Assembly: GCA_964016885.1 (NCBI GenBank)
Contig: OZ024742.1
Location: 123,132,001 to 123,196,000, forward strand
DNA from: Eledone cirrhosa
Lineage: Eukaryota
DNA: 64,000 bases
Reading direction: 5' to 3'
The translations under genes and the position numbers were made by a program. The notes under the pieces were generated by a model that saw nothing but the letters and a program-made list of their open reading frames with translations, ran no database searches and was not told the origin of the DNA. Position 1 is the stretch's first letter. Every line of letters starts with the position of its first letter. Below, piece after piece: positions 4,602 to 44,988 of this stretch.

Positions 4602-4636
4602 GTTTAAAATAGAGTGGAAAAGATGGGTAAGACCAC

Positions 4637-15174: not shown

Positions 15175-17626
15175 GGCATGAATGTCCCTTAATAGATAAG
15201 GCTATTTGATCGTGTTCGTGGATAACTTGAAATGTAGTTAAAAGCTAGTTACAATAATACGGCACCACTCTGTTACAGGTTTCTGCTCTTCTCAAGATTT
15301 GAAAACAGCAGCACATTCAGACGAAGAAAGTACTCGCAAATGCTTAAACATTTATCTATGTGCTTCACTGCGAATACATGTTTTATACATAGGCTCACTG
15401 AACCAACAACAGTTAATGGTATTTTCCTCTACGTCGTGTAGGAGGCGGACGGTAACACTTTCTACTTGATAGACTTGTGGATGTTTATGCTTATGTAAAT
15501 GAACAATTACATTAACGTAAATTAAATAAATAGTTTGAAAGAATTGACTGACAACACACAGAGCAATCAGTTAGATGTTTTACAGTAGTTTAGTTTTTGG
15601 TTTACCCCACTCTGTTACGATCTAGTACACGCTTGCTAAGATCAAATTCGATGTTCATTTCAAGTAATTCAGTAAAATAAATAGTATTTTTCCCTCTCTG
15701 AAATCTGCATTAAAAATACGGTTTCGGAATAGATGACAAACAGTAAATAAGCGTTATTCCGCAATTTGAAGAAATGCTGCTTAACACCATTTCAGAATTA
15801 TATTTAACAATGCACACTGCTTTCTTTATTCAGCGGGACATTCAGTTGTCAGCTAAAGCACCTTACATCGGTTTCAACGTGTGAGTGGTTAAGTATTCCA
15901 TAGACGCTTGCACCTTTAACACATTTTCCATGCTGAACCAGCGTGATACAGTTTGTGACAATGCTGAATTTTTCTATTATAGTTACAATCCACCCGGTGC
16001 GTTTCCACGCACTTTCTTTCTATCTTATTTAAATTAAAATGCTTGGATCAATATGATGCTATGCTAGATACACGTGCCTAAGAAGCCACTCATTGGGATC
16101 GAACTTGGGATATTACGAATACTGAACAAACTCCTTACCCACGTAGGTATGCCTGTGTCCACAACTAGCTACTAACCTTTTAAGTAAGGGAGTTGTTAAT
16201 AAATACATCTGATTGTCCCTTTATTTCTTATGTAAAAACAATCTTAAAATATACACTATCAAATTATTTTGCCACAAGTGTGACATACTCAGTTATTAAT
16301 AAGCATACCTTAGAAATTATAATTATTAGCAGTTGTACATTTTAGGTACAATTAATACTTGAAAAGACGGTTTTGTTAGCCTAAGTCGACCACTGAACCA
16401 CAATTTCATGGGAGCTCACTATAATCTACGATCGCAATAAACAGATTTACATTGATTTCTTTGTAGTTTACTTGTCAGACAATATGTGTTAAGTGTATAA
16501 ATCTAATTGAATCTGAATGAATATATTGCCAATCATCACTGGCATTTTTATTATCTGTTTCTTATCAGTAAAGTGTGCTTATAAATCCCTAAAGTACAAA
16601 ATCAACATTTACTACAGGTTATTACGGAGTCATGAGAGGTTGCAGCGTAATTACACATCTGATTAGAGAATAAAATAAGATACAAAGCTATTCTTTCTGA
16701 CCTCACACTATATTTAATTTGCAAACAATGAGGATAATATTCAGAATAAATCTGAAGTGATTTCTTGTATAAACACGAATAAAAAAAATAACAATAATAT
16801 TAATATCTAACGTTGGTATAATGGCAGAAACATAAACACAATGAATAATTAAATTCAGCAAAGGTTTTTATCTAGTTTTCAACGAATTACTTTTAATAAT
16901 AATAACATTGTTATTAATTTCACTTTTTACATTGGCACAGGCCATCCATTCTTGGTTGCAGATATAGAGACTTGAAAGGCAAAGCCAATCCAGAGTGTAA
17001 TTGGATATAGAATAAATTCAACTATATATCGTCCCAACGACCTGCTATTCATTACGAGAAAATATAGGCGGTACCTATCAGCTGTCGTTCGACTAACTAT
17101 TAATAACTCAAATGACACTCATATATTATAAAACATATTTTGAATATGTGAACGTCTTCATTTATTAATATTTTGTATAATATATATATATTGTGTGTGC
17201 ATGTATATATATACACACATGAAGAAGAATGGAATATTATCACTCCAAAACTGCAATATGATGGAAATAGTTTCATTGGTCTGCTTTGACGAGTTCCACT
17301 CCAATCGGTAAGCGAATGAGGTCTGGGAACTTGTCGATCGATTAGAAAAAAATCATGTGGATATCTTATCATATAATCTTATCACATAGTATCATTATAA
17401 GATATCCATTATATAGATATATTTCTTTATTAGCCACAGGGGCATAAAAAGAAGGGACAAATACAAAGGGGGAGTTTACATATAATCGAGTAAAAAGGGT
17501 GTAACATGAAAATAACCTCAAAAGGGAGGGGACGTGATGGGGGTTGCACACACCCCCGAAAAAGTGTGCAATCCTTTGCCCGGGGAGCACATGGAGAAGG
17601 TGCTCCCCTCTCCTTTACTTCTTTAC

Positions 17627-20600
17627 CTACAGGATGGTATACAGAGAAGGCCCATTTACACGAGCCATTCTCGCCACTATCACCCACCTTTCATAAAACT
17701 GCCTGTGGCCAAGCACCTCTCTCTCCATTCTTATCCTTCTTCCGAAGTGATATCGGAAGAAGTAGACCAGACTATGGCCAGAGAGGAAGTTGCCTGACCT
17801 CAGACCTTTCAATCGTGTCCACCAAACAACCTCTTTCAACATGGCTATTACGCACAGAAAAACCGCCTTTGCTTCCTTTGTGAAGAGGGGAGGTGGTTTG
17901 ATTGTCATCACGGACTCGGCGGTCAATTTAATCGGCGCCACCCGCGACAGCAGTTGTTCGGCGTAGCCCCACAGATCAGCCACGCCCGGACATTGCACCA
18001 ATGCGTGCGCAACGGTTTCTTCGTGACGCACGCATCTAGGGCATATCTTTTTTGAGGGATCCCTGCCCGGGCGCCCGTGTCTGTAGAGCCTCTCTCGAAC
18101 GGGTAGAGCCCCCCGGTAGCACTGCCAGGCCAGTGACTTCTGGAAGTTGTCCATTGGTCCTGGGCCGAAAGTCCTACCGAACAGGCTGGCCAGTTCGTCT
18201 TCTTCCATGTCCAGCGACTCTCCAAGGGTGTCATCGCCCCTGCTAGACACCAGCCCTCTATAGAATGATGAGGTGGATTCTCCACCGATGGCCTGGCCCG
18301 CTTGCCAGAGAGCCCTGAGCGCCTGAGCACACTCAGTGTGCCAGTCTCCCAGTTTTCCGGATCTTTGCTTGACCCAGGACTGTAGCTCGGTGAGTGAGAC
18401 GAGTCTCGGAAAGGCTCGTTTCACAAACGGAGCCCACACCGGTTGACCAGTGAGGAATATCTGTAGGTGCCGTAGCCTTAATGCGTGCCTACGCATCATC
18501 AACCACGGCATCCCCAGCCCTCCTTTCGAAGGTTGTTGGCAGCAGATGGATCTTCTCACCATAGGAGGACGCTTCTTCCAAAGAAATTGAAAGAGCATGC
18601 GTTCCATGGTGGTGAGTGTTTCCTTAGGGCAAGGCACGACAGTCAGGTGGTAGTAAGTGACGGACGCTATGTAAATGTTCGCCACCTCCGCCCGGCCTTT
18701 TAGGGACAGCTTACACTTGGCCCATTTCTGGGTTAGTGCAAACACCTTGTTCGTAACCTCGTTCCAGTTCTTTTCCACCTGGAGGTCCGGTCCAAACCAG
18801 ACCCCAAGCAACTTTACCGGGCCCTCCGTCCAGTGTCCGACGACACCGTCAGGAGGCATCGGTCTGCCTCTCCACGTTCCGAGTTGCAGCCCGATGGATT
18901 TTTCCCGGTTCAGTTTCGCTCCTGACAACCTTTCGTACTCCTCCAGTAAGGTACCGATCGCCTCGATCTCCGAGTCGGTTGATACCATTACTGTTACGTC
19001 ATCGGCGTAGGCCGACACCGCTTTGCTCAATCCTGGTTCCAGGGGGATACCCTGCAAAAACTCCAACTTCCTCAGTAAAGGCTCGAGAGTCAATACGTAC
19101 AGAAGGGAGGAGAGAGGGCATCCCTGTCGAATGGATCGTGTGATTTCGAACGGCTTCGAAAGGTAGCCGTTCACCTTGATCCTAGAACAGATGTGGTTGC
19201 TATGTAGGGCAGTGATCCAGCCTCTGAAAACAGGACCGAACCCAGCCGCCGCTAGCACCGCATCCAGGTAACCATGGTCGACCCTATCGAAGGCCTTAGA
19301 CTGATCCAAGTTGATCAGGGCCCCACCGAAGCCGGGTTTGTTGCCAACCCTCTCTATGATGTATCGCATGAGGTGGAGGTTATCGTGAATGGACCTGGAT
19401 TGGATAGCACATGTCTGCGCATCTCCCACCAGGCCACCCACCACAAGCGCCAACCTCTTTGCTAACACCTTGGCCAAAATCTTTAACTCTGTGTTTAGCA
19501 GGGTTATGGGCCGAAAATTATTTATACTATCCCCCTTGTTCTCGTCCTTCCTCACCAGCGTGACTACGCCCTTGGCTACAGAACAAGGAATTCTCCCGTT
19601 CTGCTGCCAATTGCAGTAGACCGCTTCGAGGAGTTCGGAGAAGAAGACCGGCATTGCTAAATAAAGTTCGTAAGGTATACCATCGAGACCTGGAGATTTG
19701 CGTCTGCTGCATTGGCTCAGCGCATCTCCGATCTCATCAGCCGAGATTGGTCCCTCGCAGGTCTCTGCCTCTTCGTTCGAGAGACGCGGCAGGCCGTCGA
19801 GGTATGGACCGAAATCCACGCCCCGGCCCGGACCCTCGTCTCCCCCGAACAATCGGGCAAAGTGCTTTTGAAAGGCCTCGCACATCTGCTTAGGCTCCCG
19901 GATCACTCGTCCATCTTCGTCTTGCAACGACCGGATGGTGGATCGATTTCCACTCTTAGCTTCTGTCACGCGGGCCCATCCAACGGCTTTGGCCCCCTCA
20001 TTACCTAGAGCACGTATTTTACTTCGAATGACGCAGCCTTCGTGCTTTGCATCGAAAAACTGGTTCAAGGCCGTCCTCGATGCCAGCACTCGGGCCACAT
20101 CTTCGCTCTTGATTGCCTCTTCTAATTTACCTGTTAATTCTTTCTCGTTTCTATTCCTATCGGCAGCTAACATCTTGCTATAACTTATTGATTCTGTTCT
20201 AATCTCTCTTTTGAGAGATGCCCACCATCGGTTGTTGACGATTGCACCCGTCAACCTCTCCTTAACTAATCTGCTAATCCGGTTTCTGTAAGTCTCTTTT
20301 GCCGGTAAAGACAAATTAAGTTTCCAGTAACCGGGACTCTGTCTATGTGTTTTCTCGAGATTGACCACGCAGGTCACTAATTTGTGATCCGTGTAGCCAA
20401 CCGTGCGCATTTCTGGACAGCTTAATATGTCCCTATCCTTACTTCTAACTAAGAATCTATCTAAGTACGATCTAGATTGACCACTGTGGTTTCTCCAAGT
20501 CCAGGTAGGCACAGTTGGAAAATCTAGTCGATATCTATCGACCAAGTTAAAACGGTCGAGTAACCCCTTGAGGCTGTTACACCCCCCTCTATTAGGACAT

Positions 20601-21064
20601 GCTCCTGCATAGTCCCAACGTGCATCCAGGATGTCATTCCAATCCCCCGCTAGAAGCAGGGAACGCGACGTTGCCAGAAAAGTCTCCAAACGCTGGAAGA
20701 AGTCGGGCCGTTCAGCTCCGAAAGGGGAGTAGACGGCGACCAGTCTCAAGGCCGCACTTTCACTACTGCCAACGTCTAGCACCAACAAACGACCCTCCGG
20801 GTCCGAGTGCACAACCTGTACGGCAAGACCCAGGTGTTTTTGCAGCAGTACGACAACCCCACCCCCACCTCCAGGTTGACAGAGAGATGCATGCACCTCA
20901 AAGTCATCGAAGGTGGGGGCCAGCTGCCGCACGACGCTGATTCGAGTCTCACAGATAACCATTACATTTATACTACATGACCTGAGGTCATTTAGAAGCT
21001 TTGCTTGCTTCCAAGTTGAGCCCAGGCCACGTGCATTCAAACATCCTACTCTTAACACATCCAT
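17627..21064 (-). CDS. Copy B ORF2: APE endonuclease, reverse transcriptase and CCHC zinc finger (1145 aa)
   Basis: Motifs NARGL, GDWN, YLDRF, TDH, PGLDG, FRPITLLN, DQSKAFD, QGCPLS, YADD, GGLG and CPRC-x8-H-x4-C. Confidence 0.97.
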   Translation of the reverse strand: MDVLRVGCLNARGLGSTWKQAKLLNDLRSCSINVMVICETRISVVRQLAPTFDDFEVHASLCQPGGGGGVVVLLQKHLGLAVQVVHSDPEGRLLVLDVGSSESAALRLVAVYSPFGAERPDFFQRLETFLATSRSLLLAGDWNDILDARWDYAGACPNRGGCNSLKGLLDRFNLVDRYRLDFPTVPTWTWRNHSGQSRSYLDRFLVRSKDRDILSCPEMRTVGYTDHKLVTCVVNLEKTHRQSPGYWKLNLSLPAKETYRNRISRLVKERLTGAIVNNRWWASLKREIRTESISYSKMLAADRNRNEKELTGKLEEAIKSEDVARVLASRTALNQFFDAKHEGCVIRSKIRALGNEGAKAVGWARVTEAKSGNRSTIRSLQDEDGRVIREPKQMCEAFQKHFARLFGGDEGPGRGVDFGPYLDGLPRLSNEEAETCEGPISADEIGDALSQCSRRKSPGLDGIPYELYLAMPVFFSELLEAVYCNWQQNGRIPCSVAKGVVTLVRKDENKGDSINNFRPITLLNTELKILAKVLAKRLALVVGGLVGDAQTCAIQSRSIHDNLHLMRYIIERVGNKPGFGGALINLDQSKAFDRVDHGYLDAVLAAAGFGPVFRGWITALHSNHICSRIKVNGYLSKPFEITRSIRQGCPLSSLLYVLTLEPLLRKLEFLQGIPLEPGLSKAVSAYADDVTVMVSTDSEIEAIGTLLEEYERLSGAKLNREKSIGLQLGTWRGRPMPPDGVVGHWTEGPVKLLGVWFGPDLQVEKNWNEVTNKVFALTQKWAKCKLSLKGRAEVANIYIASVTYYHLTVVPCPKETLTTMERMLFQFLWKKRPPMVRRSICCQQPSKGGLGMPWLMMRRHALRLRHLQIFLTGQPVWAPFVKRAFPRLVSLTELQSWVKQRSGKLGDWHTECAQALRALWQAGQAIGGESTSSFYRGLVSSRGDDTLGESLDMEEDELASLFGRTFGPGPMDNFQKSLAWQCYRGALPVRERLYRHGRPGRDPSKKICPRCVRHEETVAHALVQCPGVADLWGYAEQLLSRVAPIKLTAESVMTIKPPPLFTKEAKAVFLCVIAMLKEVVWWTRLKGLRSGNFLSGHSLVYFFRYHFGRRIRMEREVLGHRQFYERWVIVARMARVNGPSLYTIL

Positions 21065-21097
21065 GTGGGCGGCAGAGCCAAAGGAGAGTGTAGAGAC

Positions 21098-22999
21098 CTA
21101 CCTTTCCGCTTCCCGGGGTTCGGGTTGCACGACTTCCATGGGGTCGGGGGTGTTGGGTGAAGGGGTGTCTTGTGGTGGTCTGGGGTCGTCAGTGTGTGGT
21201 GGGGTTGGGGTGTTTGGAGTTATGTTGGGGAAGGGAAGGGGAGGGGGAAAGCTTTTTAGTAGGACGCGGTTTATGGGTTTGACAGAGGGTGGTCCTACGT
21301 CCTCCTTAAAATCCTTTTTTAGTTTTTGGTAGAGGTTCATTGGGATCTTTATTAGTTTTAAATGTGGGTGGTTTTCTGACGAAACAAAGTTTACACCTTC
21401 GGTTTGTACCGAAGGATTATTGTATATGAGTTCATTTAATTTATTATTGTTTCTGTTGATGTAAGTATAGTGTAATGTCTTTTTTTCCGATGGTGTGAGC
21501 GTTTCGAAGAGGGGAGGGGCAGGTTTGGTTTTGTTTGTTGCTGGAGGGGTGTTTTCTGTTTTGTTGGATTGTGTTGAGATTTGGGTGGGGGTTGTTTGTC
21601 CTTGTGTGTTTTGCACATGTTTTCTTTTTTTCCTTTTAATCTGTCTGAAGGACTCCGTTTCTTCCTCCGAATTCGTTGGGTTATCTTCAGTGTTGGAGGG
21701 AAGAGGTTTGTTTGCTGGTAATGTTTCCGTGTTGGTTTTCTTTGTGGGGGAGATGGATGTCACTATGTTAGACTGTGTTGTGTGTTGTGTCTGCGGTGGT
21801 TGTGTTGTTTTATTGAGTGAGAGGTTGGGTGGGCCTGTATTTTGTTTTGGGGTAATGTGTTGTGACTGTTTGTGTTGTGGTGGTGTTGTGATTTTACTGA
21901 GGGACGGGTTGGGTGGGACTGAGTTTTGTTGTTTGTTTATCTGTTGTGGTCGTGGTGGTGGAGCTGGTGTTGGTAGCAGGGTTTTCTTTTTGTTGAGTTG
22001 GGGACAAGCGGCCTTCAGGTGCCCTCTGCCTGCACAGATATGGCAGGACGGCCTTCTCCCCTCCACGCTAATGTTTATATACCCGTGGTCCTCTAATAGG
22101 ATTCTGTCGGGTATTTGGGCGATGCGTTCAGTCTTCATTTGTACTACCAGCTCTATACCTGTTCCACTGAACGCATTGCCTGTGGTTTTCCCAATGGAAA
22201 TCACGTTGTCATTCACTGGATCGATGAAGCCAGCTATGAGCCAGCAGTAGTCCACATCTGGCATCATTGCATCCAGCCATATGCGTTGAGTTCTTTTCCC
22301 CATATAAGATGGATAAAAGGTGAAATTTTTCGAACGAATCGGTGACAAAGCACATTTTTTTGCCGCCGATTCGTTCTTCATGATAATTGCTAGGCTTCCA
22401 TACAGTCTGTCTTTTCTTATGAAAGTGGTTTCATTGAGTACTTCTGTGAGTACTGTTTTGATATCTGCTTGAGAAGGCTGTTCAGGTTTTTTTGTACTGT
22501 TGTTGATGGTCCGAAACTTGACCGTTCGGCTTTCAATGTCTTTCGTGAATTCTTGAGGCATTTTTACCGATAAAATACCATTCTCTCCTTCACTTATGTA
22601 TTGTTTGGCGTCCGTGATCCTTCGTACCACATTTGAAATGTTTTCCGCTATATAAGTCAAAGATTTATTTGTTTTCTGTGCAAATGAAATCTTGTCGTCT
22701 GCTTTGTTTTCTGATATGGTGTTATTTTCAACTGTTATTTTTGTGTTTGTTGTGTCTTTGTTTGTGTTATTAGTATTGTCATGCAATTTTTGAAATTTTT
22801 TTTTTTCGTTGTTGGAATCCAAGTCCAGATTTGTGTTTTCGTCATTTAATTTTTTCTCCGCAGATTCGTCTGTTTTTATTTTAATTTTTCCTTCCTTCTC
22901 TATGACGTTAGTTGGGAAGGAAGGGAGGACTAAAGCGTGCGAGCTTACAACTCTTACCGCTGTCCCCCCACCACTATTTTCGTTCGCTGCGTTTAACAT
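21098..22999 (-). CDS. Copy B ORF1: nucleic-acid-binding protein with a CCHC knuckle (633 aa)
   Basis: VEGRRPSCHICAGRGHLKAAC. Lies upstream of ORF2 and is homologous to ORF1 of C and D. Confidence 0.93.
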   Translation of the reverse strand: MLNAANENSGGGTAVRVVSSHALVLPSFPTNVIEKEGKIKIKTDESAEKKLNDENTNLDLDSNNEKKKFQKLHDNTNNTNKDTTNTKITVENNTISENKADDKISFAQKTNKSLTYIAENISNVVRRITDAKQYISEGENGILSVKMPQEFTKDIESRTVKFRTINNSTKKPEQPSQADIKTVLTEVLNETTFIRKDRLYGSLAIIMKNESAAKKCALSPIRSKNFTFYPSYMGKRTQRIWLDAMMPDVDYCWLIAGFIDPVNDNVISIGKTTGNAFSGTGIELVVQMKTERIAQIPDRILLEDHGYINISVEGRRPSCHICAGRGHLKAACPQLNKKKTLLPTPAPPPRPQQINKQQNSVPPNPSLSKITTPPQHKQSQHITPKQNTGPPNLSLNKTTQPPQTQHTTQSNIVTSISPTKKTNTETLPANKPLPSNTEDNPTNSEEETESFRQIKRKKRKHVQNTQGQTTPTQISTQSNKTENTPPATNKTKPAPPLFETLTPSEKKTLHYTYINRNNNKLNELIYNNPSVQTEGVNFVSSENHPHLKLIKIPMNLYQKLKKDFKEDVGPPSVKPINRVLLKSFPPPLPFPNITPNTPTPPHTDDPRPPQDTPSPNTPDPMEVVQPEPREAER

Positions 23000-23232
23000 T
23001 TCTGTTAGACGATTGAAATTTTTTACACAAAATTTTTTAAAACAGGTTTTTCACCTCTAGGAGGGGTAAAGATGAGCTGACCCACCGCCTGACAGTTCAG
23101 ACGGAGGGTCAAGCTACACAATTGTATCAAAATTAAGTTTGAACTCACAAAATTTCCTCAATAAATTTGAACAAAACTTCTGTGCGAAGTGAATGACATC
23201 CACACTGTAGAACAGACGACAGCTAGATTTCT

Positions 23233-23275
<43 letters not shown>

Positions 23276-23300
23276 TATAGATAGATAGATAGATAGATAG
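23233..23300. repeat. (GATA)n tract, the (TATC)n tail of copy C
   Basis: Immediately follows AATAAAGAAATA on the minus strand. Confidence 0.95.
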
Positions 23301-23542
23301 ATATATTTCTTTATTAGCCACAGGGGCACAAAAGAAGGGGACAAATACAAAGGGGGAAGTTTACATACAATAAAAACGTGTAAAATGTTATCACAGATGG
23401 AATTTAAAAGTTAGTCGATTTTCCCCAATAGAGGGAGACAGTTTATATGGGTAACACATACCCCCGAAAAAAATGTGCAACCCTCATCTCCAGGAGTACG
23501 AAGAGCTTGTACTCCTTTCCTCTCCTCCTCCTTTTCCTCAAT

Positions 23543-26500
23543 CTACAGGCTGATATAGAGAGAAGGCCCATTCACTCGGGCCATTCTCGCCACTTTCACC
23601 CACCTTTCATAAAACTTGCTGGGGTACAGCACCTCTCTCACCATCCTGATTCTTCTTCCAAAGTGGTATTTGAAAAAAAGAATCAGTTGTTGGCCGGAGA
23701 GAAAGGTGTCTGACCTCAGCCCTTTCAACCTTGTCCACCATACAACCTCTTTCGCCATAGCTATCACACAAAGGAAAACCGCCTCTCCTTCGTTTTTGAA
23801 GGAGGGTGGCGGTTTGATCATGACAATGGACTCGGTGGTCAACTGGATTGGTCCCACCCGCGACAATAGTCGTTCTACATATCCCCACAGGTCAGTGACG
23901 CCCGGGCAGTGTATGAATGCGTGCGCGACGGTTTCTTCGTCTCGCACGCACCTCGGACAGATCTTTTTTGCAGGGTCCCTGCCCGGGCGCCCATGTCTGT
24001 AGAGCTTGTCTCGAACTGGTAGAGCTCCTCGGTAGCACTGCCAGGCCAGGGACTTTTGGAAGTTGTCCATCGGTCCCGGGCGGAAGGTCCTACCGAACAG
24101 ACTGGCCAGTTCATCTTCCTCCACGCCCAGAGTTTCACCGAGCGCGTCGTCGCACTTGCTGCGGACCAACCCTCTATAGAATGACGAAGTGGAGTCTCCA
24201 CTGATCGCCGGGTCCGCCTGCCAGAGGGCTGTGAGCGCCTGAGCACATTCGATGTGCCAGTCGCCCATTTTCCTCGGTCTCTGCTTGACCCAGGACTGCA
24301 GCTCGGTCAGTGAGACGAGTCGTGGGAAGGCTCGCCTCACGAACGGGGCCCACACCGGTTGTCCGGTGAGGAATACGTAGAGATGCCGCAGCCTGAGCGC
24401 GTGTTTGCGCATCGTCAACCACGGCATCCCCAGCCCTCCGTTAGAAGGGTGTTGGCAGCAGATGGATCTTCTTACCAAAGGAGCCCGCCTCTTCCAAAGG
24501 AATCGGAAGAGGGCGCGCTCCATTTTGGCGAGCGTTTTGGCTGGACAAGGCACGACGGTCAAGCGGTAGTAGATGGCGGACGCTATAAAAGTGTTCGCCA
24601 CCTCCGCTCGACCTTTCAAGGATAGTTTGCACTCGGCCTACTTCTGGGTGAGTGCAAACACCTTGGCCGTCACTTCGTTCCAGTTCTTCTCCACCTGGAG
24701 GTCCGGACCAAACCAGACCCCGAGCAGCTTTACCGGTCCTTCCGTCCAGCGTCCGACGACGCCATCGGAAGGCATCGGTCTGCCTCTCCACGATCCAAGT
24801 TGCAAACCGATGGACTTGTCCCGGTTCAGCTTCGCTCCTGTGAGACTTTCGTATTCCTTTAGTAAGGTGCCGACTTTCTCGATTTGAGAGGCGCTCGACA
24901 CCATTACTGTCACGTCGTCGGCGTAGGCCGACGCCGCTTTCCGCAGTCCCGGTTCCAGAGGGATGCCCTGCAATAGCTCCAGCTTCCGCAATAGTGGCTC
25001 GAGAGTCAGTACGTACAGAAGGGAGGAGAGAGGGCATCCCTGTCGAATGGATCGCGTAATATGGAACGGCTCCGAGAGGTAACCGTTCACCTTGACCCTT
25101 GAGCAGATGTTGCTGTTGTGCATTGCAGCAATCCAGCCCCTGAACACGGGTCCGAAGCCTGCCGCCTCGAGCACCGCATCCAGGTAACGATGGTCAACCC
25201 TATCGAAAGCCTTAGACTGATCCAAGTTGATCAGGGCCCCACCGAAGCCGGGTTTACACCCTACCCTCTCTATGATGTATCGCATGAGGTGGAGGTTGTC
25301 GTGTATGGACCTGGTCGGGATCGCGCATGTCTGCGCTTCTCCCACCAGGTTCTCGACGACAAGCGCCAGCCTCTTTGCCAACACCTTGGCCAAAATCTGT
25401 AACTCTGTGTTTAGCAGAGTTATGGGCCGGAAGTTGCCTATGTCACCCCCCTTATTCTCGTCCTTCCTGATTAGTGTGACCACGCCCCCGGTTACAGAAT
25501 TGGGAATTCTCCCGTTCTGTTGCCAGTTGCAGTAGACCGCTTCCAGGAGACCGGAGAATAAGTCCGGCATTGCTACGTAAAATTCGTAGGGTAGACCGTC
25601 GAGACCTGGAGATTTGCGTTTGCCGCATTGGCTCAGCGCGTCCCCTATCTCAGTGGCTGAAATCGGCTTTTCGCAGAACTTCGCCTCGCTGTCCGAGAGT
25701 CGCGGTAGGCCGTCGAGGTATGGACCGAAATCCATAGCCTCTCCCGGCGCGCCGCTCCCCCCGAACAGCCGAGCAAAGTGCCGCTGAAAAGCCGCACACA
25801 TCTGCTTCGGCTCACGTATCACGCGTCCGTTTTGGTCCTTCAAAGACCGAATCTTGGACTTGTTGCCACTTTTTGCCTCCGTCACTCGGGCCCAGCTAAC
25901 AGCTTTGGCTCCCTCGTTTCCCAGAGCACGTATTTTGCTTCTGACAACGCAGCCCTCGTGCTTTGCGTCGAAGAACTGGTCCAAGGCCGTTCTCGTTGCT
26001 AGCACGCTGGCTACGTTGCCTCTTCTAATAGCCTCTTCTACTTTATCTACCAGTTCCTTCTCGGTTCTAATTCTATCTAACGCTAATTCTTTACTAAAAA
26101 CTATCGAGTCTAATCTAACTGCCCTCTTGAGAGAGTACCACCATCTGTTGTTGACAATGGCCCCTGTCAAGTGCTGTTTAACTAAAGTGCTAATCCGTCT
26201 ACTGTAGGCTTTGCTTGTCGGTAACGACAAGTTCAGCTTCCAGTAGCCGGGTCCTTGTCTATGGGTTCTATCAAGCTTGGCCATGCAGGTCACTAGTTTG
26301 TGATCTGAATAGGCAACCATGAACATTTGTGGACAGCTTACCATGTCCCTATCCTTATTTCTAACTAGAACCCTATCTAGGTACGATCTAGATGTTCCGC
26401 TACGATTACTCCACGTCCACAGTGGCGCAGTCGGAAAATCTAGTCGATATCTATCGGCCAGGTCAAATCGGTCGATTAACTGTTTGAGGCTGTTACACCC

Positions 26501-26980
26501 CCCTTTATCGGGACATGCTCCCACATAGTCCCAACGTGCATCTAGGATTCCATTCCAGTCCCCCACTAAAAGCAAGGAGCGGGACGTTCCCAGAAAAGTC
26601 TCTAGACGTTTGAAGAAGTCTGGCCGCGGTGTCCCGGATGGGGCATATGCGGCCACCAGCCTGAACGCTCCACTTTCACTACCGTCAACGTCTAGGACCA
26701 CCAGTCGACCCTCCGGGTCCAGATGTACCGTCTGTGTTACGAGGCCCAGGTGTTTCCGCAGCAAAACGGCAACTCCGCCCCCACCCCCCGGTTGACAGAG
26801 AGATGCGTAGATCTCAAAGTCATCGAAGATGGGGGCCAGCTGTCGCTCGCCGTGGATCCTGGACTCGCAAATGGCTACCACATCCAAACTGTGCGACCTG
26901 AGGTCGTTTAAGAGTTTACCCTGTTTCCAGGGCATCCCCAGGCCGCGTACGTTCACACATCCAACTCTTATATTGGCCAT
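23543..26980 (-). pseudogene. Copy C ORF2, interrupted only by TAG at 24638-24640
   Basis: ORFs 24638-26980 and 23543-24619 share a frame. B, D and E have TGG (LTQKW/LIQKW) at this codon. Confidence 0.95.
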
Positions 26981-27013
26981 GTTGGTGCTGAAAAGTTAAA
27001 AGAGGAAAAGAGA

Positions 27014-28930
27014 TCACTCACCCTTCGCCTCCTGGGGACCAGGCCGCACGATTTCCATGGGGGTGTTGGAGGGGTTGTCTGGATGGGTGGTGGTTTCCGG
27101 CGGGGTGGGGACGCAGATGTTTGGTGGGGTGGGGTCTGGTGGGATGGGGGTGTCTGGGGTGGGGAGGCATTTGAGAAGGACGCGGTTGAGTGGTTTCACG
27201 CAGGAATTCCCCACATCCTTCTCAAATGTTTCTTTTAGGGACCTATAAGTTTGTATAGGGACCCTAATCAGTTTTAGGTTCATTTTTTTGCTATTTTTTA
27301 TAGAGTGGGCGAAAGTTTTCCCTTCGGTGAAAACCGAAGGGTCGTTCGTAATGGTCTCCATTAGTGTTTTGTTTTCAGTGTTTATGTAAGTGTAAGTGTA
27401 ATTTTCTTGTGTTGTGTTTGTTTTTGTCTGTAGTTCTTGTGTGTGCTTTCGTTTTGTTGTAGGTATTTTGTTTTCAGGAGGTGGGGGTTTTGTTTGTGAT
27501 ATTTTTGTTGTTTGTGTTGGTGGTTGTATGTTTGTGGTAGTGTTTGCTGGTTTTTTGCTTTTGTGATGTCTTTTCTTTCTTTTCGAGCGATGGGGTTCTC
27601 CCTCGTCTTCACTGGGTGATGGCGAGATAGCCTCATCTGTTGTATCGTCTGTGTGATTGGGGAGGGGTATGTCTTGGGGAGCTGTTGTGTCTGTATGTGA
27701 TTTTGCAGTGGTTTTAGGTGGAGTGAGGTTGGGTGGGACTGTGTTTGTTGTGGTTATTTTTGTGTGTTGGTGTTGTTGTTGTAGTGGTGGTGTTGGTGGT
27801 TGTGTTGTTTTGATGGCTGTTGGCAGAAGAGCCTTTTTTTGGTTCATTAGTTTAGGACAGGAAGCCCTCAGGTGACCCCTGCTAAAGCAATGGTAACATG
27901 AAGGCCGCCTACCCTCAACCGAAAGGTTTATGTAGGTAAGTCCGTCCAGGAGTACACGCTGTGGGATCATAGCTATTCGCTCTGGGCTCATTTGCACCAG
28001 AACTTCAATGCTAGTCCCATTGAATACATCTCTGGGGGACTTGCCTACTGACAGTATTCTGTCTTCATCAAAATTGATGAAGCCGCACAGTATCCACCAT
28101 ATGTTCACCTTTGGTGTGACACTTGTGATTCTGATCTTTTGTGTCCTTTTTCCCATGTATGTAGGGAAAAAGGTGTACAGGTTGGATACAATTGGCGACA
28201 CAGAGTAATTTTGGGCCGTCAATTGATCCTTCATCAGTACCGAAATACTCCCAAAAAGTTTGCTTCTTTGAATGAATGCAATATCATTCATTGAATCTTT
28301 GAAAACCAGTTCAATATCTTTCTGTGACAATTGGACTGGTTTTCGGGTAGAATTGGAAACTGTCCTAAAAACTATCGTTTTGAGAGCAGTTTCCTTGCGA
28401 ATTTCTACCGGAGAATTGATGCTGAAAGCACCATTTTTTTCGAAGGTGACATATCTCTTAGCGTCCTTTAAAAGGTGTTCAGCATTTGTTATGTCGAGAT
28501 ATATCAATTGTTCTTTCTCTTGAACTTTCTCCGCAAAGGAGATTTTTGGTTTCTTTGTGGAATCCGTATTGGTGGTGTTGTCATTATTGTTGTTATTCTT
28601 GTTGTTATTCTTGTTGTCACCGATGTTGGTATCATCCGTATTTTCCTTGGTGTTGTTGTTGTCTTTGATGCTGGTGTTATTGGCGTTGTCTTTATTTTTT
28701 TCTTTGTTGTTGTTATCATTGTTGCTTTTATCATCATTATTGGTTTTGCTGTTATTTTTGTTGTCATTGAGCTGTTTGGTGTCATTTGTGTTGTTTGGAT
28801 GTGAATTCGTTTTTTTATTTTCATTTTGTCTTTCCATCTCTATAGTATCTAGTGAAGAAGACGTTGTTGACTGCGAGCTTTGTAGTCTTACCGCCTCTCC
28901 ACCACCATTATCGTTGGACGCAGCGTTCAT
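27014..28930 (-). CDS. Copy C ORF1 (638 aa, CCHC knuckle)
   Basis: VEGRRPSCYHCFSRGHLRASC, with an Asn-rich N-terminus. Confidence 0.93.
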   Translation of the reverse strand: MNAASNDNGGGEAVRLQSSQSTTSSSLDTIEMERQNENKKTNSHPNNTNDTKQLNDNKNNSKTNNDDKSNNDNNNKEKNKDNANNTSIKDNNNTKENTDDTNIGDNKNNNKNNNNNDNTTNTDSTKKPKISFAEKVQEKEQLIYLDITNAEHLLKDAKRYVTFEKNGAFSINSPVEIRKETALKTIVFRTVSNSTRKPVQLSQKDIELVFKDSMNDIAFIQRSKLFGSISVLMKDQLTAQNYSVSPIVSNLYTFFPTYMGKRTQKIRITSVTPKVNIWWILCGFINFDEDRILSVGKSPRDVFNGTSIEVLVQMSPERIAMIPQRVLLDGLTYINLSVEGRRPSCYHCFSRGHLRASCPKLMNQKKALLPTAIKTTQPPTPPLQQQHQHTKITTTNTVPPNLTPPKTTAKSHTDTTAPQDIPLPNHTDDTTDEAISPSPSEDEGEPHRSKRKKRHHKSKKPANTTTNIQPPTQTTKISQTKPPPPENKIPTTKRKHTQELQTKTNTTQENYTYTYINTENKTLMETITNDPSVFTEGKTFAHSIKNSKKMNLKLIRVPIQTYRSLKETFEKDVGNSCVKPLNRVLLKCLPTPDTPIPPDPTPPNICVPTPPETTTHPDNPSNTPMEIVRPGPQEAKGE

Positions 28931-29173
28931 AACGTAATCAAAATTTTACAATATTTTTTTCCAAGATTCGATGGAGAAAAATTTTTTAAATGGATATTCC
29001 GCCCCTGAAGGGGCGAAAATGAGTTGACCCACCACCTGAAGGTCCAGACGGGTGGTCAAGTTACACAATGATATAAAATTGAACTAAAAACTCACGTTTT
29101 TTCCTTACATAAATTAACGGAAACTTCTCCGCGAAGTGACACACGACTGATAGAGAGATAGATAGATAGATAG

Positions 29174-29264
29174 ATATATTTCTTTATTAGCCACAGGGGC
29201 ACAAAAGAAGGGGACAAATACAAAGGGGGAAGTTTACATACAATAAAAACGTGTAAAATGTTAT
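29174..29264 (-). repeat. 91-bp exact duplicate of copy C's 3' terminus (23301-23391) with its own (TATC)n tail
   Basis: Base-for-base identical by inspection and flanked on both sides by (GATA)n. Confidence 0.95.
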
Positions 29265-29295
<31 letters not shown>

Positions 29296-29559
29296 TGTTT
29301 CTTTTATTTGCCACTAGGGCATCAAAAGTGGGACAAGTACAAAGGGGGGAGTTTACATAAAAAGGCGTCCTCAATAAGGAGGAGGCAATAACCAAATATA
29401 AAAATAAAATAAGATATAACAAAAAATAAAATTTTTAACAAAATCCTCAATAGAGAGGAGGCGCCTTGGGGGGTCGCACACACCCCCGAAAAAAGTGTGC
29501 AACCCTTCTCCTCAGGAGCACAGAGAAGGGGTGCTCCCTTGGTCTTTCATCTTCCTCAC

Positions 29560-32500
29560 CTATAGTCTGATGTAGAGTGAAGGCCCATTCACACGGGCCA
29601 TTCTCGCCACTTTCACCCATCTTTCATAGAAACGGCTGGGGTGCAGCACCTCTCTCTCCATCCTGATCCTTCTTCCGAAATGATATCGGAAGAAACGGAC
29701 CAGTTGTTGGCCAGAGAGAAAGGTGCCTGACCTCAGTCCTTTCAGACGCGTCCACCATACAACCTCTTTCGCCATGGCTATTACGCACAGAAACACCGCC
29801 TCTGCTTCATCTTTGAAGGGGGGAGGCGGCTTGATCATTACAATAGACTCGGTGGTCAACCGGATCGGTCCCACCCTTGACAGCAGTTGTTCGACATAGC
29901 CCCACAGATCGGCTACGCTCGAGCAGTGTACCAATGCGTGTGCAACGGTTTCCTCGTCGCACACGCATCTGGGACAGATCTTTTTGGCGGGGTCCCTACC
30001 CGGGCGCCCGTGTCTGTAGAGCCTTTCTCGAACGGGTAAAGCCCCTCGGTAGCACTGCCAGGCCAGGGACTTCTGGAAGTTGTCCATAGGTCCCGGGCTG
30101 AATGTCCTACCGAACAGGCTGGCCAGTTCGTCCTCCTCCATGTCTAGGGCTTCTCCGAGGGCGTCGTCGCACCTGCTGCGTACCAGCCCTCTATAGAATG
30201 TTGCGGTGGAGTCTCCACTGATAACCGGATCCGCCTGCCAGAGGGCGGTGAGCGCCTGGGCACACTCAGTGTGCCAGGCGCCCAGTTTTCTCGGTCTTTG
30301 CTTGACCCAGGATTGCAGCTCGGTGAGTGAGACGAGTCTGGGAAAGGTTCGTCTCACAAACGAGGCCCACACCGGTTGTCCGGTGAGGAATACGTAGAGG
30401 TGCCGTAGCCTTAATGCGTGTTTACGCATCATTAGCCACGGCATCCCCAGCCCTCCTTTCGAAGGGTGTTGACAGCAGATGGATCTCCTCACCATAGGAG
30501 CCCGCCTCTTCCAAAGGAATTGGAAGTGCGCGCGATCCATCTTGGTGAGGGTTTCCCTTGGGCAGGGCACTACGGTCAGGCGGTAGTAGATGACGGACGC
30601 TATGTAGGTGTTCGCCACCTCCGCCCGACCTTTCAGGGATAGTTTGCAACTGGCCCACTTCTGGGTCAGTGCAAACACCCTGTTCGTAACCTCCGCCCAG
30701 TTTTTCTCCACCTGGAGGTCCGGTCCGAACCAGACCCCGAGCAACTTCACCGGGCCCTCCGTCCAGCGTCCGACGACGCTATCGGAGGGCATCGGTCTGC
30801 CCCTCCACGTGCCGAGTTGCAAACCGATCGACTTGTCCCGGTTCAGCTTAGCCCCTGTGAACTTTTCGTACTCCTCCAGTAAGGTGCCGACCGCCTCGAT
30901 TTCGGAGGCCGTCGACACCATTACTGTCACGTCATCGGCGTAGGCCGACACCGCTTTCCGCAATCCCGGTTCCAAAGGGATGCCCTGCAACAACTCCAAC
31001 TTCCGCAGTAGTGGCTCGAGAGTCAACACATACAGAAGGGAGGAGAGAGGGCACCCTTGTCGGATGGACCGCGCGATTTTGAACGGCTCCGAGAGGTAGC
31101 CGTTCACCTTGACCCTAGAGCAGGTGCGGCTGCTGTGCATAGCAGTGATCCAGCCCCTGAAAACGGGTCCGAAGCCTGCCGCCGCTAGCACCGCATCCAG
31201 GTAACCATGGTCGACCCTATCGAACGCCTTAGATTGATCCAAGTTGATCAGAGCCCCACCAAAGCCGGGTTCGTTCCCAACCCTCTCTATGATGTATCGC
31301 ATGAGGTGGAGGTTGTCATGGATGGACCTGGACGGGATAGCGCATGTCTGCGCATCTCCCACCAGGTTGCCCACGACAAGCGCCAACCTCTTTGCTAGCA
31401 CCTTGGCCAAAATCTGTAACTCTGTATTTAGCAGTGTTATGGGCCTGAAGTTACTTATTTCGTCCCCCTTGTTCTCGTCCTTCCTCACTAGCGTGACTAC
31501 GCCCTTGGTCACAGTACAGGGAATTCTCCCGTTCTGTTGCCAGTTGCAGTAGACCGCCTCGAGGAGATCGGGGAACAAGTCCGGCATAGCTAGATATAAT
31601 TCGTAAGGAAGACCATCGAGACCCGGGGATTTGCGTTTGCCGCATTGGCTCAGCACGTCCTCTATCTCAGCGGCCGAAATCGGCTCCTCGCAGGACTTCG
31701 CCTCCCTGTCCGAGAGGCGCGGCAGGCCGTCGAGGTATGGACCGAAGTCCACGTTCCCAACCGGCTCCCCGCCCCTCCCGAACAGTCGGGCAAAGTGCCT
31801 TTGAAAGGCCTCACACATCTGCTTAGGCTCAAGAATCGCCCGTCCATCCATGTCTCGCAAAGACCGGATGGTGGATTTAGTTCCACTGTTGGCCTCTGTC
31901 ACGCGGGCCCAGCTAACAGCTTTGGTCCCCTCGTTCCCTAGAGCACGTATTTTACTTCGGACAACGCAGCCTTCGTGCTTCGCGTCGAAAAACTGGCTCA
32001 AAGCCGTTCTCGACGCTAGCACTCTGGCCACGTCGCCGCTTCTAATTGCCTCTTCTACTCTATCTATTAGCTCCCTTTCCTTCCTATTCCTATCCGCAGC
32101 TAGAACCTTACTAAATTCTATCGAGACTACTCTAATCTCTCTCTTTAGAGATACCCACCACCTGCTGTTGACGATCGCTCCAGTCAACCGTTCCTTAACT
32201 AACGTACTAATCCGATTCCTGTAGGCTCTACTTGCCGGCAAGGACAAGTTGAGCTTCCAGTAACCGGGGCCCTGTCTATGAGTTCTGTCAAGGTTGACCA
32301 TGCAGGTCACTAATTTGTGGTCTGAATAGCCAACAATGCGCATTTTTGGACAACTTAAAAAGTCCTTATCCTTAATTCTAACTAAGAACCTATCTAGGTA
32401 CGACCTAGATGATCCGCTACGATTTGCCCAAGTCCAGGTTGGCGCAGTCGGAAAATCTAGTCGATATCTATCGGCCAGGTCAAATCGACCGATTAACCCT

Positions 32501-32997
32501 TTGAGGCTATTACACCCCTCTCTATCGGGGCAGGCCCCTACGTAGTCCCAGCGTGCATCTAGGATACCATTCCAGTCCCCCACTAATAGCAAGGAGTGGG
32601 ACGTCCCTAGAAAAGTCTCCAGACGATGGAAGAAGTCCGGCCGCATTGACCCGAAAGGGCCGTAGGCGGCTACCAACCTAAACGCTCCGCCTTTACCACT
32701 GCCTAGGTCCAGAACCACTAGTCGACCCTCCGGGTCCAAATGTACCATCTGTGTTGCGAGACCCAGATGTTTTTGCAGCAGAACGACAACTCCACCCCCA
32801 CCTCCGGGCTGACAGAGAGATGCGTGCATCTCAAAGTCATCAAAGGTGGGGGCCAGCTGTCGCACGTTGCTGATCCGGGCCTCGCAAATAACCATCACAT
32901 CTATACGTTGTGACCTGAGGTCATTTAGAAGCATTGCTTGCTTCCAAGTTGAGCCCAGGCCACGCGCATTTAAACAGCCTACTCTTAGCATAGCCAT
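29560..32997 (-). CDS. Copy D ORF2: APE-RT-zinc finger (true start MAMLRV at 32997)
   Basis: All catalytic motifs are present (GDWN, SDH, QGCPLS, YADD). Start assigned by alignment to B and C. Confidence 0.97.
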   Translation of the reverse strand: MAMLRVGCLNARGLGSTWKQAMLLNDLRSQRIDVMVICEARISNVRQLAPTFDDFEMHASLCQPGGGGGVVVLLQKHLGLATQMVHLDPEGRLVVLDLGSGKGGAFRLVAAYGPFGSMRPDFFHRLETFLGTSHSLLLVGDWNGILDARWDYVGACPDREGCNSLKGLIGRFDLADRYRLDFPTAPTWTWANRSGSSRSYLDRFLVRIKDKDFLSCPKMRIVGYSDHKLVTCMVNLDRTHRQGPGYWKLNLSLPASRAYRNRISTLVKERLTGAIVNSRWWVSLKREIRVVSIEFSKVLAADRNRKERELIDRVEEAIRSGDVARVLASRTALSQFFDAKHEGCVVRSKIRALGNEGTKAVSWARVTEANSGTKSTIRSLRDMDGRAILEPKQMCEAFQRHFARLFGRGGEPVGNVDFGPYLDGLPRLSDREAKSCEEPISAAEIEDVLSQCGKRKSPGLDGLPYELYLAMPDLFPDLLEAVYCNWQQNGRIPCTVTKGVVTLVRKDENKGDEISNFRPITLLNTELQILAKVLAKRLALVVGNLVGDAQTCAIPSRSIHDNLHLMRYIIERVGNEPGFGGALINLDQSKAFDRVDHGYLDAVLAAAGFGPVFRGWITAMHSSRTCSRVKVNGYLSEPFKIARSIRQGCPLSSLLYVLTLEPLLRKLELLQGIPLEPGLRKAVSAYADDVTVMVSTASEIEAVGTLLEEYEKFTGAKLNRDKSIGLQLGTWRGRPMPSDSVVGRWTEGPVKLLGVWFGPDLQVEKNWAEVTNRVFALTQKWASCKLSLKGRAEVANTYIASVIYYRLTVVPCPRETLTKMDRAHFQFLWKRRAPMVRRSICCQHPSKGGLGMPWLMMRKHALRLRHLYVFLTGQPVWASFVRRTFPRLVSLTELQSWVKQRPRKLGAWHTECAQALTALWQADPVISGDSTATFYRGLVRSRCDDALGEALDMEEDELASLFGRTFSPGPMDNFQKSLAWQCYRGALPVRERLYRHGRPGRDPAKKICPRCVCDEETVAHALVHCSSVADLWGYVEQLLSRVGPIRLTTESIVMIKPPPPFKDEAEAVFLCVIAMAKEVVWWTRLKGLRSGTFLSGQQLVRFFRYHFGRRIRMEREVLHPSRFYERWVKVARMARVNGPSLYIRL

Positions 32998-33021
32998 GTT
33001 GGTGGTGAAGAGAAAAGGCAC

Positions 33022-34809
33022 TTACCTCTCTGCGTCCCGGGCATCGGGCTGCACAATTTCCATTAGGGTGGGGGATGGGTTGTTGGGTGGGGTGGTAGTT
33101 TGTGGAAGTGTGGGGGCATCAGTGTGTTGTGTGGTTGGGGAGCTTGAAGTTGTGAGGGTGTTTGGGGAGGGGGTGGGATAGTTTTTTAGGAGGACGCGGT
33201 TAATGGGCCCGACGCAGGGGGGACCCACGTCCACTTTAAAATTGTTTTTTAAAGTTTTATAGGTGTCCTGTGGGGCCTTAATCATTTTGAGGTGGGGGAA
33301 ATCCCCTGCCTGGGTGAAGTTAGGCCCTTGTGTTTTTATTAGATTGTTGTTGTACACAATGTTTAACAGTTTTTTGTTTCTTGTATTTATGTATGTGTAT
33401 GCATGTTTTTGTTTTTGTGTGGTGTTTTTTGTTTGCTGTTGTGAGCTCTTTTGTGTTGGTGTCAGTGTTATGTTTTGGGGAGGGGTTTTTTTCATTTGTG
33501 TGTCTGAGGTGTGTTTTCTTTTTTTTCTTTTGATTGTGTGGAAGTGCTCCTCCTCGTCTGACGACGAACTAGGGTCATCTTCCGCGTTGGAGGGGAGGGG
33601 TATATTTTCGGGTTGTGTTTGCGGTACGGGTGTTTTGGAAATTGTTTTTGTTTTTTGAGTGGAGGGGATGGGTTGGACATTGTTTTGTTTTGGTTTGAGC
33701 TGTGGTGGTTGTTTTTGTAGTGGTAGTTGTGGTGATTGTGTTGGTTGTGCAGTTGTTGGTGGTGTAGGCAGGATTGGGGTTTTCTTATTAAGTTGGGGAC
33801 AGACAGCCCTCAGGTGACCTCTGGTTCCGCAGAGGTAACACGAGGGCCGTCTACCCTCAACGGTAATGTTGATGAAGGTTAGATCATCCAGTATGACGCG
33901 TTCAGGGATCTGGGCGATCCTTTCGGCCCTCATTTGAACTACAAGTTCGAGGCTCGTTCCACTGAACGCGTCACCCGATGCCTTTCCCATGGACACCAGC
34001 ATGTCATCCTCAAGGTCCAGAAAACCTGTCAAAACCCACCATATGTCCATAATCGGCAGGATGGTGTGGATTTTTATTTTTTGTGTTCTTCTACCCATGT
34101 ACGTAGGGTAGAAGGTGTATGCGGTGGATGTGATTGGTTTGATTGACAGTTTCACTGCTGTGTCCCTGTCCTTCATGAGAATGGATAGACTCCCGTAGAG
34201 TCTATCCTTCTGAATGAAGGTGATGTCCTTCATGACGTCTTTTAAAACCAGCTCTATCTCGCTCTGTGATGGTTGAGCTGGTTTTTTACTTTTGTTCGAG
34301 ATTGTCCTAAACATGACCGTGTTTAGGAGTCTCTGGCTTTTTAGTTCCGGGGGGGAATGGATTGTGAATGAACCATTTTCCCCGTACACTATATATTTTT
34401 TCGCATCCGCCAGTAGCTCCTTCGCTTTTGTTATATCTACTGGCAGATAGTCGAGGGTTTTCCTTGTCGTCTCGGCGAAGGAGAAATTTTGTTTGTTTGT
34501 GTTGTTGTTGTCGTTGGTGGTGTTGTTGTTATCATTGTTGTTGTTGTCACCGTTATTGGTCTTGTTGTTGTTATTGTTATTGTTATTGGTGTTGTTTTCG
34601 TCCGTCGCATTGTTGTTGTTGTTGCTGTTGCTGCTGGTTCTTTGGGTTGTTGCCATAGCAACGTCAAGTTGTCGGTTAACAGGTGGAGAGAATTCTTCCT
34701 CTGGCTGACCTATCTTCTTGACCTCTGCTACTGTGACAGTGGCAGGGGGAAGCTGTAAGTTCATCTTCCCCTTTCCTCCTTCGAATTTTGGTGAAGAAGC
34801 TTCGGCCAT
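33022..34809 (-). CDS. Copy D ORF1 (595 aa, CCHC knuckle)
   Basis: VEGRRPSCYLCGTRGHLRAVC. Confidence 0.93.
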   Translation of the reverse strand: MAEASSPKFEGGKGKMNLQLPPATVTVAEVKKIGQPEEEFSPPVNRQLDVAMATTQRTSSNSNNNNNATDENNTNNNNNNNNKTNNGDNNNNDNNNTTNDNNNTNKQNFSFAETTRKTLDYLPVDITKAKELLADAKKYIVYGENGSFTIHSPPELKSQRLLNTVMFRTISNKSKKPAQPSQSEIELVLKDVMKDITFIQKDRLYGSLSILMKDRDTAVKLSIKPITSTAYTFYPTYMGRRTQKIKIHTILPIMDIWWVLTGFLDLEDDMLVSMGKASGDAFSGTSLELVVQMRAERIAQIPERVILDDLTFINITVEGRRPSCYLCGTRGHLRAVCPQLNKKTPILPTPPTTAQPTQSPQLPLQKQPPQLKPKQNNVQPIPSTQKTKTISKTPVPQTQPENIPLPSNAEDDPSSSSDEEEHFHTIKRKKRKHTSDTQMKKTPPQNITLTPTQKSSQQQTKNTTQKQKHAYTYINTRNKKLLNIVYNNNLIKTQGPNFTQAGDFPHLKMIKAPQDTYKTLKNNFKVDVGPPCVGPINRVLLKNYPTPSPNTLTTSSSPTTQHTDAPTLPQTTTPPNNPSPTLMEIVQPDARDAER

Positions 34810-35025: not shown

Positions 35026-35101
<76 letters not shown>
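35025..35101. repeat. (GATA)n tract at the 5' flank of copy D
   Basis: Direct reading. Confidence 0.95.
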
Positions 35102-35102
<1 letters not shown>

Positions 35103-44952: not shown

Positions 44953-44988
44953 GTTGGTGCTGAAAAGTTAAAAGAAGAGGAAAAGAAA

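Follow-up and report, generated by a model that had tools for sequence, protein, structure and literature searches.

The window analysed here, a 64,000-nucleotide (nt) stretch of Eledone cirrhosa contig OZ024742.1 (assembly GCA_964016885.1, positions 123,132,001 to 123,196,000 of the forward strand), contains three head-to-tail minus-strand long interspersed nuclear elements (LINEs; copies D, C and B, about 70% identical to one another) and two decayed copies (A and E). Judged from its sequence, the family is an L1-clade retrotransposon without long terminal repeats (non-LTR), with an APE endonuclease, a reverse transcriptase (RT) and a C-terminal zinc motif in its second open reading frame (ORF2). 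The layout is of the L1 type: ORF1 lies upstream, a short 3' untranslated region (UTR) carries a poly(A) signal, 5'-truncated copies occur and LTRs are absent. Pfam recovers Exo_endo_phos, RVT_1 and zf-RVT in ORF2, the last narrowly below its cut-off, and the closest solved relative is human L1 ORF2p (E 1e-48 across residues 8-857). A degenerate-motif search of the 3.0-Gb genome located 10,121 ORF2 starts, a lower bound for the family, and an unbroken frame of 1,153 amino acids (aa) is present in many genomic copies. Here we describe the junction of ORF1 and ORF2, where a conserved 5' splice site coincides with one arm of a predicted long-range RNA duplex, and consider whether the whole of ORF2 may serve as an optional intron.

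Copies from across the genome were compared: 60 of the first 100 listed motif matches, picked for diversity, and 40 of 150 matches from a distant-protein search that was aimed at remoter lineages and yielded known lineages only. In a tree of the endonuclease DNA they fall into 17 lineages for which both ends are available and an additional lineage, K, whose 3' end was not found; all come from one genome and are related. Splice sites were ranked with a weight matrix built from textbook frequencies. Since automatic calling is misled by frameshifted copies, the reading phase of each lineage was taken from its intact copies and from the C-terminus that the ORF1 proteins share.

At the end of ORF1 lies a U2-type consensus 5' splice site (Table 1). 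The donor and stop motifs that an earlier, sequence-only reading had picked out in these copies are all present at their minus-strand positions, and the donor it saw in five copies proves to be family-wide, being found in 17 of 17 lineages regardless of where the stop codon stands. It scores at least 7 of 9 in 62 of 64 copies and in 39 of 40 further ones (101 of 104), the three misses being copies deleted, truncated or mutated at the site, and it ranks first or tied first among the roughly 240-316 GT sites of every one of the 17 lineage representatives. Its phase is 2 in lineages A, B, C2, D, F, H and K, 1 in C1, G and J, and 0 in I. The donor is kept in all three phases, so the stop codon fails to explain it. 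It occurs as nine different 9-mers, all within the U1 consensus, in flanks that have diverged until they cannot be aligned, and for these reasons neither the stop codon nor the pairing described below can account for it alone. From these comparisons, the ORF1-end donor is non-random and under selection. In lineages A1 and G (loci L072 and L109) another perfect donor, AAG|GTAAGT, lies within the endonuclease-coding sequence, 244 nt beyond the ORF2 motif. In lineage A (window positions 4700-4640), the end of ORF1 looks, beside that of lineage G, like a tandem duplication (about 45 nt) that has decayed, with the donor retained in the second copy only and in a new phase.

A stretch of about 100 nt that takes in the donor and the ORF2 start is complementary to one of about 110 nt that surrounds the ORF2 stop, 3.4 kb distant. 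In all 17 lineages these arms are predicted to form a panhandle of 68-94 base pairs (bp) with energies, computed rather than probed, of -79.5 to -112.1 kcal/mol; the sense strand gives the more stable duplex in 16 of the 17. The spacer between donor and ORF2 AUG pairs with the purine run after the stop in every lineage, A included. Beyond the spacer, some 45 nt of the ORF1 end pair with the 3' UTR, and some 25 nt of the ORF2 start pair with the last ORF2 codons. The predicted duplex covers donor, AUG, stop and acceptor, sets the ORF2 AUG opposite the ORF2 stop and holds the ORF1 stop within its 5' arm.

The two arms co-vary from lineage to lineage. Among nine major lineages the cognate arms are the best of 362,880 possible pairings, and among six lineages of one clade they are the best of 720. 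In one clade, the 36 core pairs include six with changes in both arms and 18 with a change in one arm, and pairing holds in 361 of 396 cells, a count attained by 28 of 5,000 row shuffles; in the A/G/J clade four of 19 core pairs changed on both sides (155 of 5,000), although these counts lean toward the duplex because the core pairs were chosen from predicted duplexes. The segment at the coding end co-varies more weakly, ranking at 1,262 of 362,880 and 12 of 720, with one of 20 control segments equally good. GGCTG/CAGCC in lineages F and H against GGATG/CATCC in B exemplifies a compensatory change. At the donor itself the partner bases of several lineages follow the variant present, as with GTAGGT/ACCTAC in F, GTGAGT/ACTCAC in C2a and GTAAGT/ACTTGC in A; the donor holds the U1 consensus while its partner changes with it, so that the duplex alone does not explain the donor. 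The 5' arm finds its best partner within the element in the 3' arm in six of six lineages scanned, and the reverse is true in four of the six. In linker-joined folds of both regions, most of the spacer pairs with the post-stop run despite local hairpins. Dinucleotide shuffling of the spacer part gives z scores of -1.1 to -5.7; with the 3' side shuffled, lineages B, F, C2b, D1 and D2a reach just -1.1 to -1.7. Complementary arms over both splice sites and compensatory changes, the marks of a splice-masking duplex, are thus both found in these models.

The 3' arm can instead form two local hairpins (29480-29540 and equivalents; in C1, GGAGCAC/GTGCTCC and GGAGTAC/GTACTCC). The anti-donor bases would then lie in the loop of the first, which, as modelled, suggests a two-state switch or a toehold.

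Table 1. Features of the element copies in the window; arms, pairing and energies are predictions
Feature	Positions	Strand	Remarks
Copy B ORF1	21098..22999	-	intact, CCHC knuckle
Copy B ORF2	17627..21064	-	APE endonuclease, RT, C-terminal zinc motif; terminal TAG is the candidate acceptor
Copy B donor AAG|GTAGGT	21096..21104, +1 = 21101	-	overlaps ORF1 stop
Copy B 5' arm	21038..21145	-	ORF1 end, donor, spacer, ORF2 start; 81 bp, -98.4 kcal/mol
Copy B 3' arm	17551..17659	-	end of ORF2 with the candidate acceptor, then 76 nt of 3' UTR
Copy C ORF1	27014..28930	-	donor in phase 1
Copy C ORF2	23543..26980	-	interrupted by a single premature TGA (24640-24638); stop codon TAG
Copy C donor AGG|GTGAGT	+1 = 27021	-	phase 1
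Copy C 5' arm	26960..27065	-	83 bp, -107.7 kcal/mol with 3' arm
Copy C 3' arm	23459..23567	-	predicted panhandle
Copy D ORF1	33022..34809	-	donor overlaps end
Copy D ORF2	29560..32997	-	intact, 1145 aa; ends in TAG
Copy D donor GAG|GTAAGT	+1 = 33025	-	U1-type
Copy D 5' arm	32975..33070	-	76 bp, -95.2 kcal/mol with 3' arm
Copy D 3' arm	29480..29586	-	predicted panhandle
Copy A donor ACG|GTAAGT	+1 = 4640	-	ORF2 ATG at 4601
Copy A 5' arm	4575..4679	-	includes donor ACG|GTAAGT
Copy A 3' arm	1829..1947	-	stop TAA; 73 bp, -69.4 kcal/mol
Copy E donor GAT|GTGAGT	44991..44999, +1 = 44996	-	decayed; degraded C-type copy
(ATAG)n tail/target	23233..23303	+	between C and B; likewise 29265-29295, 35026-35102

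The candidate acceptor is the AG of the ORF2 stop, whose TAG ends at 17627 (B), 23543 (C) and 29560 (D). It is present in 15 of 17 lineages; A1 and A2 have no AG there, and copy A ends in TAA (1918), which bears out an earlier remark that A offers no clean acceptor. For 13 of the 15 lineages with a stop AG, the weight matrix places it between ranks 1 and 9 among about 250-270 AGs, and one to eight AGs score higher than it in most lineages. As a 3' splice site, the pyrimidine tract with YAG is of moderate strength in 13 of 15 lineages and poor in D1 and G, and the A stop lacks it. The pyrimidine run and the purine stretch, read earlier as a splicing tract and enhancer, are real sequences, but pairing with the ORF1-ORF2 junction explains them. 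In A1 and A2 the top-ranked AG lies at +158/+164 of the 3' UTR, and a join there would add 19 residues; this strong, acceptor-like CAG (L072 and L070) closes a motif that has no AG in other lineages.

Joining donor to stop AG would end the ORF1 protein in R* in copies B and D and in D* in C, where the unspliced frame ends in GE*. The claim that such a join reproduces ORF1 therefore stands for copies B and D but fails across the family, where it is exact in only four of 15 lineages (B, D1, F and H); one to three residues would differ in C1, G, J1, J2 and I, and the length of the tail that follows the stop AG varies. Only nine of 15 lineages would meet a stop promptly beyond the join. The idea that the downstream stop tracks donor phase fits all four phase-1 lineages, which stop within two codons, but only four of the 10 phase-2 lineages with the AG; on that count we rejected the post-acceptor stop as a selected trait. 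The A that follows TAG in copy C is a minority variant, TAG|GTTGA being the form in the majority of C-type copies.

On sequence grounds, excision of ORF2 is plausible, and the panhandle is well supported in silico and apparently undescribed. One structure laid over a near-perfect donor and the only conserved terminal-exon AG fits an element that needs both spliced and unspliced RNA. The reading we favour, which we judge to have an even chance of being correct, is that ORF2 is an optional intron: panhandle closure would keep the RNA full length, and splicing would give an ORF1-only message. U1 would bind the donor before the 3' arm, 3.4 kb downstream, is transcribed; once that arm emerges, terminal-exon definition on the 200-300-nt 3' UTR would compete with closure of the duplex. 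Spliced RNA would yield surplus ORF1 protein (ORF1p) and, without ORF2p in cis, would not be copied back into DNA. A closed duplex would mask donor, acceptor and ORF2 AUG so that unspliced RNA is exported, and ribosomes completing ORF1 would unzip it, allowing low-level initiation at ORF2. The scheme draws on general principles of terminal-exon definition and co-transcriptional timing. The fuller version, in which ORF2 is a structure-gated intron whose 70-90-bp panhandle both switches between ORF1-only mRNA and full-length template and couples ORF2 initiation to ORF1 termination, we advance more tentatively, putting it somewhat short of even.

Several observations weigh against an excised ORF2. 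The stop AG ranks only 23rd in D1 and 36th in G, and lineage A, abundant and with intact ORF2 frames, has none. By eye, no conserved branch point was seen: CTGAY occurs in J1 and J2, with no match common to all lineages. The predicted join would add at least 33 residues in six of 15 lineages (C2a, C2b, D2a, D2b, D3 and D4). Every one of the acceptor's accompanying features (pyrimidine tract, G|GT after the stop, purine run) is paired in the duplex, which deprives them of independent weight as signs of splicing. The duplex itself appears in only five of 11 minimum-energy folds of whole 3.9-4.0-kb RNAs, forcing it there costs 7 (D1) or 13 (B) kcal/mol, and the 3' arms of A1 and G pair slightly better elsewhere. 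Spliced copies were sought in lineages D, F, A and B, among copies young enough to have escaped heavy mutation. The exact D1 junction was found in no copy of the genome, against 1,211 intact donors, and the D1 3' UTR start was preceded by foreign sequence in none, against 2,514 intact; on the acceptor side, such a test would detect the predicted join and about 42% of arbitrary ones. Donor-side searches, which capture about 56%, gave four matches in the D clade, none in F, 17 in A and one in B, 21 of the 22 being mutated unspliced copies and one a short fragment; the latter (L292, an A-type donor fused to other DNA) was rejected as a spliced copy for that reason. The proposal of ORF2 as an intron thus retains the conserved donor, the stop AG of 15 of 17 lineages and the enclosure of both sites in one predicted duplex, but no spliced genomic copy in the lineages searched accompanies them.

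The sequence-only reading had also suggested that ORF1-only elements could arise. Half-L1 (HAL1) elements are ORF1-only derivatives of L1, and a retrocopy of the proposed message would resemble them; unlike HAL1, no precise-junction ORF1-only copy, with ORF1 joined to the 3' UTR, was found in the lineages searched. L1 proteins show cis preference (PMC5860796, in the part cited), and absent spliced copies are for this reason only moderate evidence against splicing, yet the HAL1 idea loses support. Among the 15 of 144 joints listed for contigs of four runs of unrecorded type on copy D, 29559/33026 did not occur; the depth of these contigs over copy D is 3'-heavy and DNA-like, and they are silent on expression.

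The panhandle could be real and act instead in translation or RNA stability, with the donor serving as a non-splicing U1 decoy or anti-termination site: the AUG would be hidden until ribosomes unzip the duplex, and/or the poly(A) tail would be folded to a place beside the stop of ORF1, sparing the RNA from nonsense-mediated decay. Both the evasion of decay by fold-back and the decoy donors of retroviruses count in its favour. So do the placement of the ORF2 AUG opposite the ORF2 stop with the ORF1 stop inside the 5' arm, the retention of donor and duplex in lineage A without a stop AG, and the lack of spliced copies in the lineages searched; in plant Copia elements, according to the passages cited, U1 binding without splicing blocks premature termination (PMC5580714). 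In the present family, poly(A) hexamers are rare in ORF2, at 0-2 per lineage, which leaves little there for U1 to suppress. A near-perfect donor before a usable terminal AG would moreover be expected to splice, and two separate functions would be required of one site; we consider this alternative possible but unlikely. That the donor is used mainly with other acceptors, within ORF2, deeper in the 3' UTR or in the host after read-through, would still produce an ORF1 message, with the stop TAG not its intended 3' site. The AGs that outscore the stop AG, the strong 3' UTR CAG of A1 and A2 and the unconserved tail length all speak for it, but no other acceptor is top-ranked across all lineages, the stop AG lies at the exact centre of the duplex, and the donor-side searches, within their capture rate, revealed no join to an alternative acceptor. 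We hold it to be quite improbable.

Chance and common descent, by which donor-like and complementary sequences would simply have been inherited without function, draw on the relatedness of all lineages in their single genome and on the tendency of pyrimidine and purine runs to pair by composition, seen in the weak z scores of B, F, C2b, D1 and D2a. One of the 20 control segments equalled the permutation rank of the inner arm, and two of 30 distant L1-like loci have z below -3. Against this, the arms co-vary among lineages whose spacers cannot be aligned, changes preserve G-U pairs, the sense strand is preferred and the donor is optimal across three phases. Donor ranking, permutation and co-variation results largely refute this explanation, and we hold it to be very improbable. 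The other 28 distant loci show no pairing, and none of the distant metagenome loci with a called ORF1 end has a consensus donor at the ORF1 stop; the trait is clade-specific. The two exceptions, L141 and L174, pair the region upstream of ORF2 with the post-stop region at z -4.4 and -3.7.

Three further mechanisms were rejected. A mini-intron fusing ORF1 to ORF2 would need an AG before the AUG, which only C, J1 and K have; it would span 28-47 nt, below the intron minimum, and the frames are inconsistent. The spacer in K (L104) and C (27021-26988) does resemble a full mini-intron of that length, with branch-like TAAC, pyrimidines and YAG, and is probably too short. Back-splicing of ORF2 into a circle lacks an upstream acceptor in most lineages. 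Stop read-through or editing would require the ORFs to be in frame, and spacer lengths place them so in only six of 17 lineages, one of which has a second stop.

The nearest named homologues are from Argonauta hians. For Octopus vulgaris, 13 active L1-Tx1 families are listed (PMC13282606). Homologue searches with ORF1 gave no match, the viral contigs searched held no relative of the element, and an Rfam scan returned nothing close to the gathering score. The zf-CCHC match in ORF1 is weak (E 0.051), with atlas matches to zf-CCHC at 0.92, and at the ends of the elements a poly(A) signal precedes (TATC)n, (TA)n or (ATT)n. A CCHC knuckle in ORF1 and insertion into microsatellites, which we take to be features of the Tx1 subgroup, are both seen here; the label Tx1-like is given on these features rather than on a tree with named Tx1 elements. 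Between 17400 and 35100 the lineages are inserted head-to-tail into one another's microsatellite tails, and tandem arrays spaced about 5.7-5.9 kb recur elsewhere in the genome. Copy E (41440-42530 on the plus strand, 43237-46700 on the minus strand) resembles a 5'-inverted insertion, its 3' part lying on the opposite strand beside a (TCTA)n run. Intact donors in D1 are about half as numerous as 3' ends (1,211 to 2,514), a proportion of long insertions that is unusually large within the L1 clade. Lineage I (L087-L090 and L112) has ATA at the ORF2 start in five of five copies (CCAAAATAGAT), where the other lineages have ATG; its sequence would fit either non-AUG initiation or a non-autonomous lineage.

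The favoured reading would combine the Gag strategy of copia with a splice-masking duplex like that in duck hepatitis B virus (DHBV), an analogy about as likely to hold as to fail. In Drosophila melanogaster copia, as described in the passages cited, an intron of about 3 kb spanning POL is removed to give a GAG-only RNA (PMC5580714; PMC7197481). Excision of the whole catalytic region would here likewise give a structural-protein-only RNA with a normal 3' end. Copia, however, is an LTR element with one ORF and demonstrated splicing, whereas the present element is bicistronic and non-LTR, its splicing is inferred and a duplex lies over its splice sites. In DHBV pregenomic RNA, complementary sequences near donor and acceptor protect against splicing (PMC3356268, as cited in part), and the paired sequences predicted here similarly adjoin both splice sites of a reverse-transcription template; unlike in that virus, closure of the duplex falls exactly at the start and stop of a single ORF, and the duplex also takes in the stop of the upstream one. 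The Arabidopsis Ty1/Copia element EVD, with its shGAG RNA, and barley BARE1 keep a conserved U1 site at the boundary of structural and catalytic regions and balance spliced against unspliced RNA (PMC5580714); they differ in using a short intron with premature polyadenylation, and a long-range duplex does not figure in the cited passages. Human L1 RNA has functional donors and acceptors, and the cited part of that study puts SpIREs at about 2% of full-length L1 (PMC5860796). There, splicing falls in the 5' UTR and ORF1, is harmful and leaves genomic copies; here the donor sits at the ORF1 stop, is conserved and has left no copies in the lineages searched. TART introns, by the passage cited, occur in antisense RNA (PMC1636488).

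The words 'splic', 'intron' and 'ORF1' do not occur in the main text of the O. vulgaris repeat paper (PMC13282606), and no report of a LINE with ORF2 as an intron, or of such a duplex, was found in the literature reached, which lies outside subscription papers and Repbase reports. If true, this would make the family the first non-LTR element, within that literature, to join a subgenomic RNA of the copia kind to a retention switch of the DHBV kind, a possibility we rate somewhat below even. How bicistronic LINEs come to produce ORF1p in large excess over ORF2p, and how they preserve a long RNA that has an early stop, is settled for few elements. The family suits such questions, offering more than 10,000 ORF2 starts, base-exact junctions and natural compensatory variants among its lineages. 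Even if splicing plays no part, a co-evolving duplex that closes exactly on the ORF2 start and stop would be a new structural element as far as the literature searched extends. If the favoured reading is true, a LINE would have independently reached a solution known from LTR elements and hepadnaviruses.

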